Source: Flavobacteriales bacterium (GTDB lineage Bacteria; Bacteroidota; Bacteroidia; Flavobacteriales_D; Crocinitomicaceae). From it: 43,091 bases of DNA. Shown in pieces: positions 6,485-43,091 of this stretch. A program made the translations under genes and the position numbers. The notes under the pieces are model-generated. The model made no database searches. It saw nothing but the letters and a program-made list of their open reading frames with translations, and was not told the DNA's origin. The stretch is taken from the NCBI GenBank assembly GCA_947476515.1, contig CANJQZ010000001.1, positions 1-43,091 of the forward strand. Direction: 5' to 3'. The stretch's first letter is position 1, and the number at the start of each line of letters is the position of its first letter.

Positions 6485-7495
6485 TTATTTAATCACAATT
6501 TTAGAAAGTTGTTTAAAAGCCTCTTTTTCAATATTACTTATTTCATTTAAAATAGAAGCGCTATCATTATAATCCGTTTGAGAAGTCAAGCGTCCTTTAT
6601 AAATACCTGACATTTGCAAAGCAGAATCCCTCCACAAATCACCTGATTTGGTTAATTGATCTGAAATATTAAGCAGTTTATCATTTCCTAATATTTCACT
6701 TGCCTCATCCAAAAATGCAGCATATAAGAATCGAAAACCACCGCCTCCAGTTCCAATTTCTTCTTGCATGCGAACAATTTGACCTAAATACAATGCTGCT
6801 TGACGATCTCCTAATTTATCTCTCCAGCCTCTAATTTTATTTGCAGTATAATTAATTCCTTTAACTCCAGCTACTCCTCCTGGTATATGCAACATATCTC
6901 TACAATTTCTTTTAATCCCTTTATTAATTGCTTTCCTCAAACAATCTTCAGAAATATCACCGATCGTTTTCGGGAAATACATTTGTCCTTTCGGCGCTAA
7001 GGCGCCTTGAGCAAAACGAACTTTTTCTAATTCTTCAGGGAAAAGTGTCGTAGTAGTTTCCATTACAGGATCACTTATTAGGTATTTACCATCTTCTTGA
7101 CCGAAAACAATTAGATTGTGTGCATTAAAATGAAATCGATATGTTTTTGGGAAATAATTCAAATGAAAAACACCAACTTGACAACCAACAGGAATCCCTT
7201 GATTCAATTTTTCATCTAATAAATATTGAGCTTCTAACTTAGATTTGAATTTTTTTCTTTCCACTTTTATATTAAGTGACCTACAGGTTCTTTTAAAAAT
7301 TGCTCCTGGCATGGTTCGAAATGAAATTGCAGGACCATTATTCACTTTCATAAAAGGAATATGAATGTAAAATAAACCTGAACCTAATCCAAAGGCTAAA
7401 GGCTCCGTTATGAATTCAACACCATTATGTTGGAGTAGACTCACTGTCACGCCATTTTCACAATGAGCCGTTTGAATATGTTTAAAATTATCCAT
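6485..7495 (-). CDS. BtrH-N-domain protein (papain/C39-like fold, putative ACP-dependent acyltransferase)
   Basis: N-terminus HIQTAHC12ENGV...EPLAFGLGSGLFY matches my recollection of the BtrH N-terminal domain consensus. That consensus has a Cys nucleophile in an HCE context. Length (336 aa) fits the BtrH_N plus C-terminal DUF architecture. Confidence 0.6.
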   Translation of the reverse strand: MDNFKHIQTAHCENGVTVSLLQHNGVEFITEPLAFGLGSGLFYIHIPFMKVNNGPAISFRTMPGAIFKRTCRSLNIKVERKKFKSKLEAQYLLDEKLNQGIPVGCQVGVFHLNYFPKTYRFHFNAHNLIVFGQEDGKYLISDPVMETTTTLFPEELEKVRFAQGALAPKGQMYFPKTIGDISEDCLRKAINKGIKRNCRDMLHIPGGVAGVKGINYTANKIRGWRDKLGDRQAALYLGQIVRMQEEIGTGGGGFRFLYAAFLDEASEILGNDKLLNISDQLTKSGDLWRDSALQMSGIYKGRLTSQTDYNDSASILNEISNIEKEAFKQLSKIVIK

Positions 7496-7893
7496 TAAAA
7501 ACCAGGTGTTTTTAATTCCATCAATGTTATTCCGAATGCATCTGCATACTTTTGCAGTTTCCGGACATTTAGTCTTTTGAAATTTTTTGGAGATTTATGC
7601 CTTTTAATTTGCCATATCCAAAATCCAGTATATCCTGACAAAACTGAATAATCCATTAATTTCAATTCCATATAATAATGAATTGGACTTGATTGACCCG
7701 AAATAAAGAGACTTTTAGCTTCTTCGATCCTATTTTCAATATCTTTCCATGCAGAATTTAAGGCATCTGTTTTAACCTCCCAACCTGAACTCAATTCGGC
7801 CTGATATTTACCATTATCATTTTTAACATAACATACCTCTCTTGTGAAATTGACTAAATCACTATTATCCTGAGGAAGATCAGATTTTTTCAT
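7495..7893 (-). CDS. hypothetical protein with C-terminal HTH-like segment
   Basis: The track start at 7899 is TTG. The ATG at 7893 overlaps the darB stop (TGATG). The C-terminus NVRKLQKYADAFGITLMELK resembles the recognition-helix end of XRE-type HTH domains. No other motif recognised. Confidence 0.45.
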   Translation of the reverse strand: MKKSDLPQDNSDLVNFTREVCYVKNDNGKYQAELSSGWEVKTDALNSAWKDIENRIEEAKSLFISGQSSPIHYYMELKLMDYSVLSGYTGFWIWQIKRHKSPKNFKRLNVRKLQKYADAFGITLMELKTPGF

Positions 7894-9041
7894 CAACAAA
7901 CAGTAAACATTGCAAACACATATGTAAATCTAGCACTTTCTGGAACAGCTATCAATATTGTTTCGCCAATTTTTAATTTATTGCTTTTCCATAAATCATC
8001 AATCATCATATAGACGGACGCAGCCCCAACATTTCCACATTTATCAAGATTGGTAAACCATTTTTCTTTAACGATTTCCATACCATTTGCTTTCAGTTCA
8101 TCATAAATTTTATCTTCAAAAAAATAACTTGACATATGAGGGATGAAATGATCTATTTGATTGACATGAATTCCCTTATTTTTAATAATAATCTCCAAAT
8201 TTTTAAATCCTAGTTTAACGATATTATCCCCCAAGAGTTTGACATCTTGTTTGATACTAAAAATAGATTTCTCCATTATTTCTGAGGGTGAAAAATCACT
8301 AAAACCTTTCAATGTTCCATTGTTAGATTTCTCTGCTCCCATATACATACAAGTCTCCATTTGATTTGCAAAAGAGAAACCTTCTATCCAATCTATTCTC
8401 AATGAAATATCATGCTCATTTTTCTTGTCTTCGATTAAAAATGCTGCTGCACCATCAGAAAGCATCCATCTTAAAAAGTCTTTTTCAAAAGCAATATAGG
8501 GGTCTTTTTCTAATTCAATTTGTTTTTGCACCTCTAATTCAAACTGCTCTGATCTCATTACCCTTGATAAGCGTTCTGAACCAGTAGAAACCGTTTTTTT
8601 TGATGCTCCAGTGCGTACGGACATGAAATTATATTTCAAAGCATGCATTCCGGAGCAACAGTTACCTGAAGGTGAAACAACTTCAATTGCATTAGAGTCA
8701 GGCAGCCAACCATGAACCATAACACCATGTGATGGCATTAATTGATCAGGAGAAGATGTTCCACAACTTAACAAATCAATTTCTTTTATTTCATTAGAAT
8801 CTTTTTTAAATAGACTCTTTATTGCAAGTGAAGTCAATTCTGCATTTGTATGCGTTGATTTTCCATCTTTAGTTATTGCATAATAACGACTCTTTATTCC
8901 GTTATTGCGTAATACTATTCTTCTAGATTTTGAGGCATGATCATTAACTAATCCTAAATAATCTTCCATTTCATCATTTGAAATTGGATTGTTAGGAAAA
9001 AAAACTGCACTTCTAGTTATAAAAACTTCTTTTAAACTCAT
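7893..9041 (-). CDS. darB: KAS III-like dialkylresorcinol condensing enzyme DarB
   Basis: FabH-like Cys-His-Asn set: SGNCCSGMHAL, HFIPHMSS, CGNVGAAS. Its start overlaps the darA stop (ATGA). Confidence 0.75.
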   Translation of the reverse strand: MSLKEVFITRSAVFFPNNPISNDEMEDYLGLVNDHASKSRRIVLRNNGIKSRYYAITKDGKSTHTNAELTSLAIKSLFKKDSNEIKEIDLLSCGTSSPDQLMPSHGVMVHGWLPDSNAIEVVSPSGNCCSGMHALKYNFMSVRTGASKKTVSTGSERLSRVMRSEQFELEVQKQIELEKDPYIAFEKDFLRWMLSDGAAAFLIEDKKNEHDISLRIDWIEGFSFANQMETCMYMGAEKSNNGTLKGFSDFSPSEIMEKSIFSIKQDVKLLGDNIVKLGFKNLEIIIKNKGIHVNQIDHFIPHMSSYFFEDKIYDELKANGMEIVKEKWFTNLDKCGNVGAASVYMMIDDLWKSNKLKIGETILIAVPESARFTYVFAMFTVC

Positions 9042-9953: not shown

Positions 9954-10397
9954 TTAAAGATTCAAGTGTATAGATGTTTTTGAATAAGAAATAATTGCAT
10001 TTTTAACTTCTAAATTCAAGGAAGCATAGTGTTTTTTAATCCAAATCACATCTTCAGAGATATTGCCTTGATATTTCAAAATTTTTGGAGCATTTTCTTG
10101 AATAATAAGTCGTAAAAAACGATATTCAGTGTTCTTAGAATTTAATCCTATTTCATTTTCCAATTGGATGCGACCTTGTTTAAAAATCTCCAGTTTTTCC
10201 TTCGGAGTATTTTGAAATCCGGCTTTCTTCATAACTAATGCACCTTTATAAGCTTTTTTATCACTGCCTTCTTTTTCAGCATCTAGTATCTTAAGCATAG
10301 CATTAACAGAAGTTAAATCTTTAGAAGAAATAACTTTAAAATATTCCTCTTTAGAAAATGATAGCGCTAATAATAAATAGATTATAAGACATTTCAT
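9954..10397 (-). CDS. hypothetical secreted protein (first gene of the darAB operon)
   Basis: 147 aa with an N-terminal signal peptide MKCLIIYLLLALSFS. No recognisable catalytic motif. Confidence 0.5.
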   Translation of the reverse strand: MKCLIIYLLLALSFSKEEYFKVISSKDLTSVNAMLKILDAEKEGSDKKAYKGALVMKKAGFQNTPKEKLEIFKQGRIQLENEIGLNSKNTEYRFLRLIIQENAPKILKYQGNISEDVIWIKKHYASLNLEVKNAIISYSKTSIHLNL

Positions 10398-11672: not shown

Positions 11673-12033
11673 TATACTCTGCACTTATTTTCATAAATAC
11701 AGTGTGGTCATCTAGAATTTGTCCACTAATTCGGATTCTATCTTCGTAATTTTCTATAATATCAATATTAATTCTAACCAACGAAGAATGTAATGGATTT
11801 AAGATTGCCAAGAACTTGCAATTTGACATCTTTGTCAGCTTAATTTTTTTCTTTAAACATTCAGAAACTAATTCCTTAACTAATTCCATTTCCACTACTC
11901 CTGGAGTAACAGGATTTCCCGGAAAATGACCCGCAAAAATCACATGATCAGCCTCTATTTTTATAGTTGCGTGTATCTTGGTCTCATTGCATTCAATAGC
12001 TACAATGGAATAAAAATCATCTTTTAACATCAT
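11662..12033 (-). CDS. hotdog-fold 3-hydroxyacyl-ACP dehydratase (FabZ/FabA-like)
   Basis: 123 aa with the FabZ-type catalytic segment GHFPGNPVTPGVVEMEL. Confidence 0.75.
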   Translation of the reverse strand: MMLKDDFYSIVAIECNETKIHATIKIEADHVIFAGHFPGNPVTPGVVEMELVKELVSECLKKKIKLTKMSNCKFLAILNPLHSSLVRINIDIIENYEDRIRISGQILDDHTVFMKISAEYINV

Positions 12034-12659
12034 CAGAAATTACTAAATTTTAAATCATTTATTAATTCATTTAATTGAACATTACTAAATGAAAATATTA
12101 TTTTCTCTTTTTCAGATTCAACTAAACTCATTTCTTTGAGTTGCAAATATTTTTTATCAAAAATCAAAACAACTTGTTCAATATATTTTGACATCCTAAC
12201 AGATTGAGGTTTTAAAACTAATTTGTACTGAGAAGTATTTTCATAATAAGAAATGATAAAATCTTTATCTTCCAAGAAAGTGCCAGATAACATTTTTACC
12301 ATTAAATTTTGTATTTTCTTGACAATCAACTTGGTTGATGGGTCTTTTATTTCTTTTCCTTTTTCACTATATTTTATTTTATTTCCATCAATCAATAAAA
12401 TCTTTTTAATGGGACTTTGATGTTCCCATCTTATTTTTTGAGTTTGCTTATAATATAGCTTTCCTGTAGCAATTTGTTTATCATTAAACATTTCAGAATA
12501 AACAGTTTCTTTAAAATCTGCCATTAATGATTTGGTTGATTTCTGTTGTTTCTGAATACTTAACTTGCATTTTGAGAAATCGGTCATTTTCTTAAAATCC
12601 TGACTAAAAGAATTTAAGCAGAAAAAGATGAAAAATAGAGTATTACATATTTTTTTCAT
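12033..12659 (-). CDS. LolA-like outer-membrane lipoprotein carrier protein
   Basis: Signal peptide present. ADFKETVYS...GKLYYKQTQKIRWEHQSP...LIDGNKIKY matches the LolA pattern (F-x-Q/E..., RW, dG..l..Y). Confidence 0.7.
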   Translation of the reverse strand: MKKICNTLFFIFFCLNSFSQDFKKMTDFSKCKLSIQKQQKSTKSLMADFKETVYSEMFNDKQIATGKLYYKQTQKIRWEHQSPIKKILLIDGNKIKYSEKGKEIKDPSTKLIVKKIQNLMVKMLSGTFLEDKDFIISYYENTSQYKLVLKPQSVRMSKYIEQVVLIFDKKYLQLKEMSLVESEKEKIIFSFSNVQLNELINDLKFSNF

Positions 12660-38113: not shown

Positions 38114-38332
38114 GAGTGCTTTTAAAATCAAAAAGTTTTTACAGGGAGGCTCCTGAGGGTGATTGGATAAAAACAAATTTATGCTTCGGATTTTGGGTGG
38201 AAATTTATTATAAAAGGTGATGTTTGCTAACACTGGTTTAGCTCCTCTCGATACAACCCCAGCGAATTAGGGGATAATTAGGTGCTTATCTCAAGCATAT
38301 ATGGCTCACAATGAGTCCTTGATTATAAAAAC

Positions 38333-38364
38333 AAAAAACCTACTATGCAAATAGTAGGTTTTTT
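38333..38364. terminator. bidirectional rho-independent terminator
   Basis: CCTACTAT (38339-38346) pairs with ATAGTAGG (38351-38358). Loop GCAA. A-run 38333-38338 on one side and T-run 38359-38364 on the other. It lies 20 nt past the stop of the minus-strand gene 38385-38699. Confidence 0.8.
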
Positions 38365-38384
38365 AAGTTTAGACTTTTTTGGTA

Positions 38385-38699
38385 TTAATACAATTCCATT
38401 GTAGTACATCCTTCGGTAACATTAACAGTACCCGACCACGAATTAGTTCCATCACCTGCAGTATAATTATAAGAGCCAGTTTCTAAGTGACTAAAAACAG
38501 CAGAACCCGAAGCTCCACAAGCAGGAGCAGAAGCATATTCGCTTGAAATATTTGAAGATACCCCATTAAGGTCAACTACTGTAATACTAAAACCGCTTCC
38601 TGTTTTCTGCCAAAAAGTAACATCACCATATTTTGTTTTCCGGCAAGAAGACAATAGGATTACTGATAAAATTGATAATAATAATAGTGTTTTTTTCAT
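38385..38699 (-). CDS. small lipoprotein
   Basis: 104 aa with signal peptide and lipobox LLSS-C19. Ser/Gly/Thr-rich beta-type sequence. Confidence 0.55.
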   Translation of the reverse strand: MKKTLLLLSILSVILLSSCRKTKYGDVTFWQKTGSGFSITVVDLNGVSSNISSEYASAPACGASGSAVFSHLETGSYNYTAGDGTNSWSGTVNVTEGCTTMELY

Positions 38700-38923
38700 T
38701 TGTAAATAAATTAAATAATCCTTACTCTTTAGGCTTTTCAGGAACCGCCATTTTTATTTTTTCTATTTAGGTTTTTTCTTCATTTCAAAATTTACTTCAC
38801 TTAGTGGCTTGATTTAAGCACCTGTTGGTTTGTCTACTAGCATATAACCCCACATCAATGTCAACAAATTTACCCAAGCCATATCGTATTAATTTTGAAG
38901 TTAATAGTCTTATAAAAAATATT

Positions 38924-39322
38924 TTATTCTATTCCATCAAAGTATTCTCCTACCATCATTTCAGGTAACTTTAATTTTGTTGTGATTTTTTTCAATTCCT
39001 TAATATAGTTAGCTATTGCGTTTGGATTATGTGGTATTCTGAAAGACAAAGTTGTGATACCGTCTTTAAATGTAGCCTCAACTTGACAATAAAACTCAAA
39101 AGGATTTATTCTTCCAACATTTTGCCATAATGTTACCTTTCCATGACTTGCATTAGCTTCATAATCTCTACTTCCCCAATTCGCTTCTCTTCCGGCTTCT
39201 TTGCATTTGTTCAATGCTTCTGTGATAGAAGTTTTTGAAGTAATTGTAACTTTCGCAACTTTTTGTGCATTTGCAACCCCGAATGTTAGCAACATTGTTG
39301 CCATAAAAATTATTGATTTCAT
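38924..39322 (-). CDS. hypothetical secreted protein
   Basis: 132 aa with a signal peptide ending VANA-Q. No motif recognised. Confidence 0.5.
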   Translation of the reverse strand: MKSIIFMATMLLTFGVANAQKVAKVTITSKTSITEALNKCKEAGREANWGSRDYEANASHGKVTLWQNVGRINPFEFYCQVEATFKDGITTLSFRIPHNPNAIANYIKELKKITTKLKLPEMMVGEYFDGIE

Positions 39323-39424
39323 TTTTATTTTTTTTTAGGTCCCTACTTACATCACATTTCGGATTGTGCGCCATTTGCATGGTTTCTATACTCCATTAAT
39401 TGAACCAAAAATAACAAATAATTT

Positions 39425-39452
39425 AATAACACGAAATATATTTCGTGTTATT
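39425..39452. promoter_or_regulatory. 28-bp perfect palindrome, candidate operator for the XRE regulator
   Basis: AATAACACGAAATA|TATTTCGTGTTATT reads identically on both strands. It sits in the divergent intergenic region, about 20 nt upstream of the likely XRE start. Confidence 0.5.
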
Positions 39453-39473
39453 TTTTCTGTTAATAGTTCACTT

Positions 39474-39719
39474 TTGATTGTGATTAAGAAAATTGATATT
39501 GAGTTAAAGAATATAGGTCAAAGAATAAAGGAAATCAGGGGTGAAAAAAAGCTAACTCAAAGCAGTTTAGCTTCACTTTGCGATATAGATGTTAGGACAA
39601 TTCAACTCATTGAAAAAGGATCTATGAATATGAGCTTGAAGGTATTTTTTGCACTTTCAGAAGCATTAGAAGTTTCTCCTGAAGAACTTTTTAGACTTAA
39701 AGGAGGAAATATTAGTTAA
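39474..39719 (+). CDS. XRE-family helix-turn-helix transcriptional regulator
   Basis: IGQRIKEIRGEKKLTQSSLASLCDIDVRTIQLIEKG is a canonical HTH_XRE pattern. The track start (GTG at 39366) adds 36 implausible residues and would bury the palindrome. Likely starts are TTG at 39474 or GTG at 39480. Confidence 0.75.
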   Translation: MIVIKKIDIELKNIGQRIKEIRGEKKLTQSSLASLCDIDVRTIQLIEKGSMNMSLKVFFALSEALEVSPEELFRLKGGNIS

Positions 39720-39738
39720 CTTCCCTCTTTTTGTGACC

Positions 39739-39760
39739 TTACTTCCCAGTTTGGAAGTAA
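39739..39760 (+). terminator. hairpin after the XRE gene (weak terminator candidate)
   Basis: TTACTTCC (39739-39746) pairs with GGAAGTAA (39753-39760) across a 6-nt loop. No T-run follows. Confidence 0.3.
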
Positions 39761-40059
39761 CTACTGAGCCCAAATCTGTGTTTCACATTTGTATAAGCCT
39801 CGCCTGAAGGCATTGATAATGCTATAGAATTGCTTTCTGTATCTCCAAGAAAGCACCACGATCCTGAATTAAAATCAAAATACGACAGTGAACTCATTGA
39901 GCATATTGATTTTAAATAAAATAGGTATCTTTATTTTTTAAGGGATTTTTATAGAACGCCAAAAAGTATACTAACTGAACCTATAACAAACAGCTCATTT
40001 GTAGACTATCGATTAAAGTGCTGAAAGAAAATTAATAAACCTACTAAGACAACATCACT

Positions 40060-41226
40060 ATGGCAGACTTATACCCACTTTCAAAAGAAGAATTTGAAAT
40101 ATTATATGACAAAGCTTGGGAATACGGCTGGGTATATGGTAAATTTTTTCAGGAATTATATGATGAATACCTAGTAAACTGGGTGTACTTTGTCGATTAC
40201 CTTGATGTTCTTAAAGGTGCAGATGAAGAAGAAAGAATGTACGCAAGAGTTCAGAAAAAATTTGTTATTGTTTATGCAAAAAATCAACAACCAATTTTAA
40301 TTGAAGCAGGAGATTTTTATTTTGATCTTTTCAAAAAAAAAGAAGTTGAACAGGCAGTAACTGAAATTAATGTTGAAATTCTAATAGGCGAAGCACCTCC
40401 TTTTTGGAAAGGAAATGATAAAAATAAGGATAAATCATATTTTTATAATCCCTTGCAAACAAATAATAGTCCTTGGTTAAATGGTCCTGCAAATTGGAAG
40501 AGTTTAGAAAATAAATTTACTACTTCACTAAAAAATCAGGTCGAAATAAAAATTGAAAAGTTAAAATTATTAGCCAAAAAAAAAGTTGTTTTAATTGATT
40601 TTTTGCCCTTTCCAATTATTCAAAATACTAAAGTAAGGCAAAATATTTCTGGTGGTTTCTCATATCTTTTGAGTAATTATTTTATTTCTAAGTATAATGA
40701 AATTACTTGCTATATCCTCAATTCGAAAGAAAAAGAAATTAACTTTAAACATGGGTTTGTTGCCACGACATACACTTCATTACAGTTTATTTTTGATAAT
40801 TCTTTTGATAATAGTGCTATTGATTTTAGAAAAACAATACTAAACAGCCCAATAAATGATTTTGTGGATATTGGTAAATTGAACTTTGGCGAATTAAATA
40901 AGATGATTATAACATTTAAAAACAAAGAAAAGATATTGAAAACAAGTAAAATAAAAAGATCTCGAGAAATTACTCCTCTGTTTAAGTTCATATATGAACT
41001 TCATACTAGTAATAAATTTAATATTGCAAATACTGATATTAATAATACTATAGATGAATTGAACACTATTGGATTGAATATGAAATGCCCCATATTTATG
41101 GTTGAGGGTGGATCAGTTAATATGAGTAAGTCTTTTTTTAATTCAATAAATAGCAGTTTAAGAAAAAAGGAAATAAAAAAAATTAATTCAGATTTAATTG
41201 AGAATAATAATGAAATTGATGAGTAA
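40060..41226 (+). CDS. hypothetical protein, no recognised family
   Basis: 388-aa uninterrupted ORF with an ATG start. Composition is Lys/Asn/Ile-rich and very AT-rich. No catalytic motif can be assigned with confidence. Confidence 0.55.
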   Translation: MADLYPLSKEEFEILYDKAWEYGWVYGKFFQELYDEYLVNWVYFVDYLDVLKGADEEERMYARVQKKFVIVYAKNQQPILIEAGDFYFDLFKKKEVEQAVTEINVEILIGEAPPFWKGNDKNKDKSYFYNPLQTNNSPWLNGPANWKSLENKFTTSLKNQVEIKIEKLKLLAKKKVVLIDFLPFPIIQNTKVRQNISGGFSYLLSNYFISKYNEITCYILNSKEKEINFKHGFVATTYTSLQFIFDNSFDNSAIDFRKTILNSPINDFVDIGKLNFGELNKMIITFKNKEKILKTSKIKRSREITPLFKFIYELHTSNKFNIANTDINNTIDELNTIGLNMKCPIFMVEGGSVNMSKSFFNSINSSLRKKEIKKINSDLIENNNEIDE

Positions 41227-41313
41227 CATAATAAATTTTAATTAATTTATTTGAAATCAATCTCCACAACAATTTTGCATACCTAAAACATTTCTTCGTT
41301 AAAAACATAACTA

Positions 41314-42822
41314 ATGCCATTAAAATACCCACATCAATTATCGAAGTCGCGCTTTGTTTCTGGCGCGCAATGTGCTAAAAAACTATATTTCGAGCGATAC
41401 CGAAAAGAATTAAAACCTGCTATCACGCCGAGACAACAAGCTATTTTTGACCAAGGAAATTTGATTGGAAAAATGGCACATGGGTGTTTTCCAAATGGTA
41501 TTGATCTAAGCAGCCAAACACATTTTGATTATACTGATGCCATTGATAATACGATTGTTGAAATGCAAAACAAGACAAGTGTCTTGTACGAAGCTGCATT
41601 TTATCACGATGAAGTATTATCCGTTTTAGATATTTTAGAACATGATGCTAATGGAGATATTCATGCCATTGAAGTAAAAAGCAGTAGCAAAATGTATGAT
41701 TATTATATTACCGATGCCGCTTTACAATATTGGGTGATGGAAAATGCTGGGCATGCTCCTAAACGATTTTCTTTGATGCACATAAATATTTCATATGTAA
41801 AAAATGGCGCCATTGATATGAATGAATTATTTACACTAACAGACATTACTGCTGAAGTTATTAAAAAACAAGCCTGGGTAACTAAAAAAATTCAAGCACT
41901 TAAGCAAATTTTACAAACAGGGTTAGAGCCAACTCAAGCCATTGGAGCACATTGTTCTAAACCTTTTGACTGCGACTTTAAATCACATTGCTGGGGTAAT
42001 TTATTAGATAAGGACAAGGTGTTTAATTTATATAACGGAAGAAAAAAAATATGGGCTTTATATGACAGTGGCATTGTAAACCTAGCGGATGTTCCAAATG
42101 ATTTTGAATTATCACACCGCCAAAGTTGTCAAGTAAATGGTCAAAAAACAGGTGCTACACATGTTGATAGAAAACGCATACATCAGTTTTTAAATACGGC
42201 TGCATATCCCTTGTATTTTTTCGATTTTGAAACAGTTAATTTCGTTGTTCCTGTCTTAGACGGTACCTCACCATTTGAGCAAGTTGGCTTTCAATATTCA
42301 TTACACATATTGTCTTCAATAGGAGGAAAATTAGCGCATAAAGAATTTTTAGCACAAGAAGCAGATTTTACAAACCCACATACTTTGAATCCACGCCAAG
42401 CAATGATTAATCAAATGAAACATGATTTTGGAACAACGGGAAGTATTGTTGCCTATGGAGCAAGTTTTGAAAAAGGGGTTATTGAACGATTGGCGGAAGA
42501 TTTTCCTGCTGACAGCGTATTTTTAAGAGGCCTGAATAATCGTATGATCGATTTATTAACTGTTTTTGAAAATGCTTGGTATTATACACCGCAATTAGGT
42601 AAAAGCGCCTCTATTAAAGATGTATTGCCTGCTTTGGTGCCCACTTTATCATATGCCTCGTTACCAATAAATAATGGTGATTTAGCCAATAAAACATTCA
42701 TGAGTATGATTGACGGATCATTTAAAGGGGATGTAAATGAAACCCGAAATAACTTATTGGCCTATTGTAAATTAGACACCTTGGCAATGCTTGAAATTTG
42801 GAAAGTACTTTGTGCTATATAA
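41314..42822 (+). CDS. DUF2779-like protein: Cas4/RecB-like four-Cys PD-(D/E)xK nuclease fused to a DEDDy-type 3'-5' exonuclease-like domain
   Basis: N-terminal LSKSRFVSGAQC20AKKLYF. D106...E120-V-K122 (41671-41679). C214-x5-C220-x5-C226 (41953-41991). FFD304-F-E306-T (42223-42231). AYGASFE386. Y484-CKL-D488 (42763-42777). Confidence 0.65.
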   Translation: MPLKYPHQLSKSRFVSGAQCAKKLYFERYRKELKPAITPRQQAIFDQGNLIGKMAHGCFPNGIDLSSQTHFDYTDAIDNTIVEMQNKTSVLYEAAFYHDEVLSVLDILEHDANGDIHAIEVKSSSKMYDYYITDAALQYWVMENAGHAPKRFSLMHINISYVKNGAIDMNELFTLTDITAEVIKKQAWVTKKIQALKQILQTGLEPTQAIGAHCSKPFDCDFKSHCWGNLLDKDKVFNLYNGRKKIWALYDSGIVNLADVPNDFELSHRQSCQVNGQKTGATHVDRKRIHQFLNTAAYPLYFFDFETVNFVVPVLDGTSPFEQVGFQYSLHILSSIGGKLAHKEFLAQEADFTNPHTLNPRQAMINQMKHDFGTTGSIVAYGASFEKGVIERLAEDFPADSVFLRGLNNRMIDLLTVFENAWYYTPQLGKSASIKDVLPALVPTLSYASLPINNGDLANKTFMSMIDGSFKGDVNETRNNLLAYCKLDTLAMLEIWKVLCAI

Positions 42823-43000
42823 CAAGTGCTGAACCAATGGGGAACATACATACACCGATCATTTAAAAAACACCGATGTTTATTAGAATCATCAGTAAAA
42901 AGAAAATTTAATTCACTTACGCGTTATATTTTGTTAAGTGCCTCGTAGTGTATGTATGCAAAAACTTTATGAAGAAAAATGTTATTGGTACTATTGGTTA

Positions 43001-43091
43001 ATGGAATCAAAACGACGGATCGAGCTAACCTTCAACCTGCTCATTTATTCCTTTATTGCCACATTTATATGCTTAGTGGCTTATTTTTTAA
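43001..43091 (+). CDS. 5' end of a membrane-protein gene truncated by the window edge
   Basis: The ATG at 43001 opens a frame that runs to the edge: MESKRRIELTFNLLIYSFIATFICLVAYFL, a basic N-terminus followed by a hydrophobic helix. Confidence 0.3.
   Translation, partial: MESKRRIELTFNLLIYSFIATFICLVAYFL

Follow-up and report, generated by a model that had tools for sequence, protein, structure and literature searches.

A hypervariable gene slot upstream of a predicted DUF2779 dual nuclease in freshwater Bacteroidota: a candidate defence module

The window analysed here is a stretch of 43,091 nucleotides (nt) from a Flavobacteriales bacterium (Crocinitomicaceae; GenBank assembly GCA_947476515.1, contig CANJQZ010000001.1, positions 1 to 43,091 of the forward strand) with a G+C content of ∼31%. 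At 39.3-42.9 kb it carries three plus-strand open reading frames (ORFs), 39366-39719, 40060-41226, and 41314-42822, coding for an XRE-type regulator, a 388-amino-acid (aa) protein, and a protein of the DUF2779 family, respectively. A preliminary description of this DNA had grouped the three genes as a possible defence or DNA-processing module, and their common strand and the gaps of 340 nt (XRE to 388-aa gene) and 87 nt (388-aa gene to DUF2779) were as it had given them. The grouping itself held in part: the 388-aa gene and the DUF2779 gene occur together in at least 10 distinct loci, and the XRE gene is not a conserved member of the block. The upstream position of the recurring pair is a hypervariable slot filled by members of a rare protein superfamily, here termed “GEAPP.” We propose, with a probability of about 0.4, that the functional unit is the pair at 40060-42822, situated inside a larger WYL/AAA+ island that continues past the right end of the window, and that it combines a variable glycosylase-like recogniser with a dual nuclease. 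The pair is a credible candidate defence module.

In the window, and in the related loci L001, L004, L006, L011, L016, L034, L035, and L044, the gene directly ahead of DUF2779 is a member of the family. The slot of L015 holds a 340-aa gene whose relationship was undetectable by BLAST; it was matched by the family profile (hhalign probability 86%, E value [E] 4.9e-6) over a core reaching from GEAPP to an Asp, and the slot gene of L016 matched the same profile at 99.8%. The slot upstream of this clade's DUF2779 is always filled by a member of one rare superfamily. The slot gene and the nuclease gene can be exchanged separately. In L015, DUF2779 is 96% identical to that of the window, and homology between the two loci extends only from position 41303 to the window end. 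In L003, the closest relative that bears the slot gene, positions 7448-8842 align to window positions 40024-41418, after which homology resumes at 42895-43091. The 388-aa gene of L003 is intact and its product 94% identical to the window's; window positions 41419-42894 are represented there by L003 8842-8866, so that DUF2779 has been cleanly deleted, with its first 105 nt and ∼23 nt of filler left behind. L003 thus carries a secondary deletion and is a natural knockout of the nuclease. Relatives that share 94-96% identity with the window differ from one another in the DNA on the left side of DUF2779, a variability for which the preliminary description had proposed a check.

The related loci fall into four synteny types, A to D, to which the more distant L041 can be added (Table 1). 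In type B, the genes past the right end of the window were inferred from L003 and L015. Homologues of the AAA+, WYL-like, and 147-164-aa genes accompany the slot gene in every locus with enough flanking sequence. In L041, the pair is about 24-27% identical to that of the window (slot protein, 26-28%; DUF2779 protein, 24%), the two genes lie 3.7 kb apart, and ATPase-like and WYL genes adjoin them.

Table 1. Features of the locus and gene orders of related loci. Genes are on the plus strand unless marked (minus).
Feature	Position	Strand	Description
“GEAPP” superfamily member (slot gene), 388 aa	40060..41226	+	Uncurated family; possibly UDG-like (uracil-DNA glycosylase-like) fold; G+C 26.4%
DUF2779 protein, 502 aa	41314..42822	+	N-terminal half Cas4-like PD-(D/E)XK with four Cys; C-terminal half DEDDy exonuclease-like
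Spacer between slot gene and DUF2779	41227..41313	+	87 nt; right edge of variable slot at 41303
Left recombination breakpoint	40024..40059	+	L003 homology (96.6% nt identity) begins 36 nt before the ATG of the slot gene
XRE/HTH_3 regulator	39480..39719	+	Probably 79 aa, from GTG 39480; mechanical ORF start 39366
Perfect 28-bp palindrome AATAACACGAAATATATTTCGTGTTATT	39425..39452	.	Intergenic, between XRE and divergent 132-aa minus-strand gene
Long-range inverted repeat CATACATACAC / GTGTATGTATG	42845..42958	.	Downstream of DUF2779; significance doubtful
Type A (L001, L004, L006, L016, L034, L035, L044)			147 aa (minus), AAA+ 541 (minus), WYL 358, 115 aa, slot gene, DUF2779, 162 aa, AAA+ 568, ∼200 aa, RmuC or Fic
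Type B (window, L003, L015)			Variable genes, slot gene, DUF2779, 90 aa, sigma-like 176 (minus), 234 aa (minus), 163 aa (minus), WYL-like 406 (minus), AAA+ 538
Type C (L008, L014, L036-L039)			T5orf172, AAA+ 540 (minus), slot gene, WYL-like 412, 164 aa, 236 aa, sigma-like 172; no DUF2779
Type D (L011)			Slot gene and DUF2779; WYL-like and AAA+ genes 1.6 kb off
L041			324-aa superfamily member; divergent operon of WYL, 114 aa, 408 aa, DnaB_C-like 198 aa, and 660-aa DUF2779

These comparisons also bear on an explanation in which adjacency does not mean partnership. The site would then be a hotspot for cassettes, the GEAPP protein would act alone (like Brig1-type glycosylases) or together with the WYL-like, AAA+, and 147-164-aa genes, and DUF2779 would be unrelated to it. 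Type C, which combines the slot gene with AAA+, WYL-like, 164-aa, 236-aa, and sigma-like genes and has no DUF2779, supports this explanation, and the presence of AAA+, WYL-like, and 147-164-aa homologues across the synteny types points the same way. So do the retention of an intact slot gene in L003 after loss of DUF2779 and the breakpoints at 40024 and 41303, which make the two genes separately exchangeable. A neutral hotspot, however, would be expected to carry unrelated cargo, whereas the same superfamily fills the slot even past the point of BLAST detectability, and an independent, very distant member, that of L041, is again found near a DUF2779 gene. We consider mere adjacency rather unlikely. 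In the DUF2779-less loci and in L003, a T5orf172/MUG113 (GIY-YIG-like) gene was seen with the AAA+ gene (L008 4205-5272, L003 9993-11084, L036 1396-2460); its product might be an alternative nuclease partner.

The slot is sharply delimited by its variability. Within type A, nucleotide identity was 0.90-0.98 across the island, fell to 0.13-0.85 within the slot gene, and was ∼0.95 again exactly at its 3' end. Slot genes were 27-63% identical where the flanking genes were 90-98% identical. The L016 allele, for example, is 27% identical to that of the window, in a locus whose flanks are 80-90% identical to other type A loci, and the type C loci L037 and L008 share 94% identity in AAA+ and 95% in the WYL-like protein, with only 27% in the slot protein. 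Pairs of alleles had differing segments in common, indicating mosaic alleles. Replacement or diversification of the slot gene is thus much faster than that of the genes around it. Such a pattern typifies components of specificity or recognition that undergo diversifying exchange, and it argues against a housekeeping function. A second variable gene, of ∼200 aa and without a Pfam family, follows AAA+ 568 (L004 12164-12769, L001 13146-13766, L006 11945-12538); between loci that share 94-98% identity in the AAA+ protein, this gene reaches 41-64%, and it may be another exchangeable component.

A variable gene ahead of a nuclease gene could likewise be expected of a toxin-immunity or toxin-antitoxin pair, with DUF2779 as the toxic nuclease and the hypervariable upstream protein as its inhibitor, and the order of a small upstream and a downstream nuclease gene fits such a layout. 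The nuclease, however, remains ∼90% identical while the upstream gene falls to 27-60%, and this lack of co-variation disfavours a toxin-immunity function. The upstream protein is in fact large, with an invariant acidic pair suggestive of catalysis; moreover, the intact slot gene outlasts the nuclease in L003, and DUF2779 is widespread without it. A toxin-inhibitor relationship is therefore very improbable.

The downstream protein matched PF11074 at residues 301-432 with 119.3 bits (cut-off, 23.3). Residues 20-228 gave weak matches to Cas4 (PADLOC, E 2.4e-5; PHROG, E 6e-4), and some DUF2779 homologues carried a match to PF01930. Among 30 homologues of 48-96% identity, C20, C214, C220, and C226 were invariant, as were D106, E120, and K122, Q138 and Y139, and the DEDDy residues D304, E306, D413, Y484, and D488. 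The protein thus carries, in its conserved residues, the full signature of a Cas4/RecB-type iron-sulfur PD-(D/E)XK nuclease followed by that of a DEDDy exonuclease, which bears out the earlier reading of a Cas4-like nuclease joined to a proofreading-type exonuclease. A search of PDB sequences with the DUF2779 profile recovered no chain of a Cas4 or DEDD protein, which leaves the motifs, the weak Cas4 matches, and the literature as the basis of the dual-nuclease assignment. PF11074 has been placed, as family F.17, in the 3'-5' exonuclease clade of the RNase H-like superfamily, with a fused DUF83 (Cas4-like) domain (Majorek et al. 2014, PMC3985635), and MMSYN1_0389, a quasi-essential protein of JCVI-syn3.0, was also read as two nucleases (mSphere 2026, PMC13621843). 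The fusion is accordingly already published; its function is unassigned in those papers, and neither reports an activity measurement of any DUF2779 member (PMC3985635, PMC13621843). The family is widespread and uncharacterised, and both nuclease domains resemble repair enzymes, being AddB/RecB-like and MrfB-like (PMC13621843). Our own search gave >3371 DUF2779 clusters (E below 1e-10) and no full-length match of DUF2779 in 50,697 phage records, plasmids having been searched for the 388-aa protein alone. A CRISPR context was not apparent: direct-repeat analysis of the window detected neither an array nor flanking direct repeats, the latter as the earlier account had stated, and no cas families were present among the called neighbours of the related loci, with the other window ORFs unscanned for cas1 and cas2.

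Sister loci contain defence genes, namely GmrSD, an MmeI-like restriction-modification enzyme, a DUF3427 helicase/NgoFVII protein, HipA, and Fic. The regions L003 692-5955 and L015 1997-8179 and 19520-21065 hold GmrSD, a DUF3427 helicase with NgoFVII/PLD domains, a 1250-aa MmeI/Eco57I-like enzyme, and a HipA-HTH pair. At the corresponding place, on its left side, the window has genes for secreted proteins where L003 and L015 carry defence or toxin genes. None of the named anti-phage systems in PADLOC-DB v2.0.0 was recovered with the three proteins: the 388-aa protein had 0 matches, DUF2779 matched generic Cas4 only, and XRE gave generic matches only, which agrees with the earlier failure to assign the locus to a named system.

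A nuclease of this kind might also belong to a housekeeping or stress DNA-repair pair, in which DUF2779 would process DNA ends and the slot protein would be a damage-specific, glycosylase-like accessory, in the manner of base excision repair and with no part in immunity. This would suit the wide distribution of DUF2779, its quasi-essential member in JCVI-syn3.0 (PMC13621843), the AddB/RecB-like and MrfB-like character of its domains, and the RmuC and SSB genes found near the slot gene in L001. Repair genes, however, are normally not hypervariable cassettes, and the slot family is very rare, with 5 loci among 185,579 species-representative genomes. DUF2779 is also dispensable in L003, the sister loci are defence islands, and the slot gene is AT-rich in composition. 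We regard a pure repair function as improbable.

The 388-aa protein had been considered an orphan without a recognisable family. It indeed matched no curated family in Pfam, NCBIfam, PADLOC, or PHROGs, but it is not an orphan: 77 clusters of homologues were found, none carrying a Pfam domain, and searching 1.84 billion representatives with a family profile (E ≤ 0.001) extended them to a superfamily of 146 representatives. No Pfam family occurred consistently across the superfamily (83 members scanned). The 5 loci found among species-representative genomes are all from Bacteroidota metagenome-assembled genomes and include lake metagenome bins (Loclat and “ME” samples) and a pond Cryomorphaceae bin. 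The slot family is limited to a few freshwater Bacteroidota. In collections of mobile elements (50,697 phage records, IMG/VR contigs, and plasmids), no match to the 388-aa protein was found.

Across 94 diverse superfamily members, one Glu (E111) and one Asp (D180) are invariant. E111 is part of ILIGEAPP (residues 106-113), which follows the first strand, and D180 is part of VVLIDFLPFPIIQ (residues 176-188; motif VLLxDxFPFP), where the second strand ends. The same members also have near-invariant Tyr, Pro, Lys, Arg, Pro, and Phe positions, and a YFYN motif is present at residues 127-130 of the window protein. The close family shows conservation at residues 1-60, 101-140, and 181-200 and, to a moderate degree, at residues 341-360; P344 and N361 are invariant in it, and hypervariable inserts occupy residues 61-100 and 241-340. 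The invariant acidic pair suggests that the slot protein may be an enzyme. In the 430-aa homologue P0055, the C-terminal end is swapped for an unrelated extension of ∼120 aa (GGIIMW...PPYYVLAFIMRIA; columns ∼480-615 of the close-family alignment, A1), which suggests a chimeric allele or an assembly join. The longer members P0221, P0276, P0315, and P0316 were inspected as a source of domain-fusion clues and yielded a single DUF4116 match only. A neighbouring gene of 234-236 aa (L003 11194-11898, minus strand; L015 12868-13572, minus strand; L008 9991-10701) encodes GEAPQ and FDVYLLPIP, which resemble the core motifs of the slot protein; its candidacy as a paralogue was unsupported (hhalign probability, 1.9%).

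Resemblance of these motifs to the UDG superfamily was noted before any structural search with P0217, a compact homologue of 257 aa. GEAPP would correspond to motif A, GVLLxD to GVLLLN of UNG, and the C-terminal SGNPN..FFNG to HPSPLS..GFFG. In family 4 UDGs, motif A reads GEAPG. AlphaFold2 models reached a predicted local distance difference test score (pLDDT) of 84.5 and a predicted TM score (pTM) of 0.87 for the window protein, and a pLDDT of 90.3 for P0217. In a Foldseek search of the PDB with the P0217 model, family-1 UDGs (KSHV, E. coli, and human) took ranks 1, 2, 3, 5, 8, and 11 over 215-238 columns (ranks 1, 2, 3, and 5: E 0.06-0.24, 217-238 aligned columns), none of them a significant match. 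Motif A and strand 2 are separated by 58 residues in the homologue and by 57 in E. coli Ung. For profile comparisons, the E. coli Ung sequence was checked against 1LQG; as a homologue search with it gave only sequences at least 78% identical, a 17-sequence UNG profile was assembled from plasmid-borne ung genes for diversity. Profile-profile alignment to Ung/UNG yielded a single local match, LA.kGVLLlD to WA.QGVLLLN, with probabilities of 5%, 15%, and 18%, and this match set D180 on the Asn that reads uracil. When PDB sequences were searched with family profiles, chance matches alone were obtained, to WW domains with the close-family alignment A1 and to CcpA with the wide-family alignment A2. 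A Toprim-like arrangement, with Glu after strand 1 and Asp after a later strand, was also considered, and no Toprim protein was among the structural matches. The models thus predict the structure of the slot protein confidently, with no significant structural neighbour. By sequence, the 388-aa protein cannot be classed as a UDG; that it adopts a UDG-like fold is plausible, at roughly even odds.

If so, the slot protein would be a highly diverged UDG-fold enzyme or a base-flipping sensor, and its variable inserts would determine which foreign or modified DNA it recognises. By flipping or excising a base it would make abasic sites or otherwise mark the DNA, and DUF2779 would degrade DNA from the resulting breaks in both directions, the Cas4-like domain acting 5'-3' and the DEDDy domain 3'-5'. 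Nearby WYL-type regulators and AAA+ ATPases would control or assist this process. A more ambitious form of the proposal makes the GEAPP superfamily a diverged branch of the UDGs that serves as the exchangeable specificity component of an undescribed multi-gene immune system of freshwater Bacteroidota and licenses DUF2779; this we hold to be doubtful.

Several results weigh against a glycosylase-like recogniser working with DUF2779. With the full-length window model, Foldseek gave no UDG match (best E, 1.6 in the PDB and 0.33 in BFVD), and the P0217 matches to UDGs fell short of significance (E 0.06-0.4, TM 0.25-0.33, root mean square deviation of ∼10 Å). The comparison with the 17-sequence UNG profile reached 14.7-18.3% over 12-19 confident columns, and a register placing GEAPP on GQDPY was not recovered, even by global or low-MAC (maximum accuracy) hhalign. 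PF03167 matched neither the window protein nor the 83 superfamily members scanned, and the motif-B histidine is absent, the C-terminal SGN[PV]N..FFN segment containing no His. As to the partnership, the type C clade (L008, L014, L036-L039) has no DUF2779 within its flanks, and the nuclease is hence not obligatory; conversely, most DUF2779 genes (L018 is an example) have no such partner, in a family of more than 3371 clusters. The quasi-essentiality of DUF2779 in a minimal Mycoplasma (PMC13621843) fits a housekeeping role, and the left flank of the window itself consists of secreted-protein genes, with no defence genes. Finally, co-transcription of the two genes is putative.

The XRE gene belongs to the surroundings of the pair. 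ORF 39366-39719 is of the HTH_3/XRE family (PF01381; Pfam E 1.9e-11, residues 54-108 of the long ORF) with a Cro/C1-type helix-turn-helix. The mechanically assigned GTG start at 39366 gives it a 38-residue N-terminal extension that resembles nothing. Since this extension spans the 28-bp palindrome, overlaps an RNA motif of the other strand (DUF805-like), and has no similarity of its own, the GTG at 39480 is favoured and is probably the real start. The perfect palindrome reported in the preliminary description is present and is likely the XRE operator: its 22-bp core occurs once in the window (chance expectation, 0 matches), and the palindrome overlaps with a sigma-70-like promoter match on the minus strand (39463 to 39435). 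The palindrome lies in a divergent promoter region, so that its control of the genes downstream is not demonstrable, and it belongs outside the conserved module. No XRE counterpart was found upstream of the slot gene in any related locus (15 or more loci compared); that place is taken elsewhere by a WYL regulator with a 115-aa gene, or by unrelated genes. Homology to L003 starts at 40024 and to L015 at 41303, so that XRE is a local acquisition, specific to this window and not conserved with the downstream pair. It would have reached the locus by recombination and may regulate itself and perhaps also the divergent 132-aa gene.

The original picture of an XRE-repressed three-gene operon acting as a self-contained defence system is favoured by the shared strand, the perfect palindrome, and the control-protein models of PADLOC that match XRE. 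Those matches, to generic HTH and control-protein models only, reflect generic HTH similarity. The absence of XRE from all 15 or more related loci, the homology breakpoints between XRE and the slot gene, the 340-nt gap between the two, and the orientation of the palindrome toward a divergent gene with its own leader motif all count against such an operon, which we find hardly credible. In the 87-nt spacer between the slot gene and DUF2779, no stable or terminator-like hairpin was found by folding against shuffled sequence (z +0.77). The small secreted-protein genes 38385-38699 and 38924-39322 are each directly preceded by an Rfam cis-regulatory motif of the DUF805 clan: a DUF805b motif at 38719-38751 (minus strand; 34.8 bits, below the gathering score of 35.6; E 3e-7) and a DUF805 motif at 39335-39401 (minus strand; 34.9 bits versus a gathering score of 51.1; E 0.0011), the latter being the leader before the divergent 132-aa gene.

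The proposed boundaries of the block fared similarly. On the left, the terminator-like hairpin exists (38326-38371), but it belongs to a convergent gene pair situated ∼1 kb farther left, two minus-strand genes lie in between, and it does not bound the block. On the right, the inverted repeat has a stem of ∼14 bp (42845-42858 with 42945-42958); its role as a terminator or boundary was rejected, as its stability was no better than that of shuffled sequence (z -0.29). The DUF2779 deletion in L003 ends within this repeat, at 42895. With a G+C content of 26.4%, the slot gene lies below the gene mean of the window (31.5%, standard deviation 2.6). It ranks among the most AT-rich genes but is not, as had been stated, the most AT-rich and most Lys-, Asn-, and Ile-rich one: ORF 9954-10397 exceeds it in the share of Lys, Asn, and Ile, and ORF 12033-12659 (minus strand, 208 aa) has the lowest G+C of the window genes, 23.8%, and may be another recent acquisition.

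The partner family, its hypervariable slot, and its recurrent association with DUF2779 and WYL genes appear to be absent from the libraries and literature searched. For DUF2779, which is very widespread and quasi-essential in a minimal synthetic cell, a fast-evolving conserved partner offers a concrete experimental handle, and an immune function, if true, would be its first biological role. Should the slot protein be a glycosylase-like recogniser, the defence glycosylases (Brig1, Brig2, and Dag) would extend from single-gene effectors to a recogniser with a nuclease, and the slot alleles would form a natural specificity series open to mining. Even if it is not a glycosylase, the sharply bounded slot clearly exemplifies diversifying exchange among uncultured freshwater Bacteroidota.

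Among known systems, the closest counterpart of the nuclease is F.17/MMSYN1_0389, which has the same order of a Cas4/DUF83-like PD-(D/E)XK domain and a DEDD RNase H-like domain, with Tyr in place of His (DEDDy). MMSYN1_0389 keeps two iron-sulfur Cys, whereas all four are invariant in the window clade, and it is quasi-essential, whereas the DUF2779 of the window clade was lost in one relative and sits behind a hypervariable gene in a WYL/AAA+ island. Solo and CRISPR-associated Cas4 share with the N-terminal half the PD-(D/E)XK core, QxxxY, and the four-Cys arrangement; in contrast to them, DUF2779 is fused to a DEDDy exonuclease and has a Cys spacing of CX5CX5C instead of the usual CX2CX5C. The island as a whole recalls WYL/BrxR-regulated and IetA-like AAA+ islands, having an HTH-WYL protein and a PF00004 AAA+ protein that matches PADLOC IetA (E 1e-18 to 2e-29); unlike those, it has no IetS protease, the AAA+ matches may be generic, and the genes concerned lie outside the window. 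The slot protein differs from family-1 UNG (PF03167) in having GEAPP and SGN[PV]N instead of GQDPY and HPSPLS, in its missing catalytic His, and in giving no Pfam match, and resembles it in the Foldseek ranks of the compact homologue, in the order of predicted secondary-structure elements, in the 57-58-residue spacing, and in LA.GVLLL[DN]. UDG-like defence enzymes of <20% identity are reported from AT-rich defence islands (bioRxiv 10.1101/2025.10.29.685425), and the defence glycosylase Brig1 has an essential Glu at the position of the UDG base-reading Asn (PMC11078745). Brig1 and Brig2 are likewise much-diverged UDG-like proteins of AT-rich defence islands that sequence searches overlooked. 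In them as in the slot family, an aromatic residue is conserved in the interval from motif A to strand 2, and the essential acidic residue of Brig1, E147, has its parallel in the invariant Asp of the slot protein that aligns, in the only profile match, at the same base-reading position.

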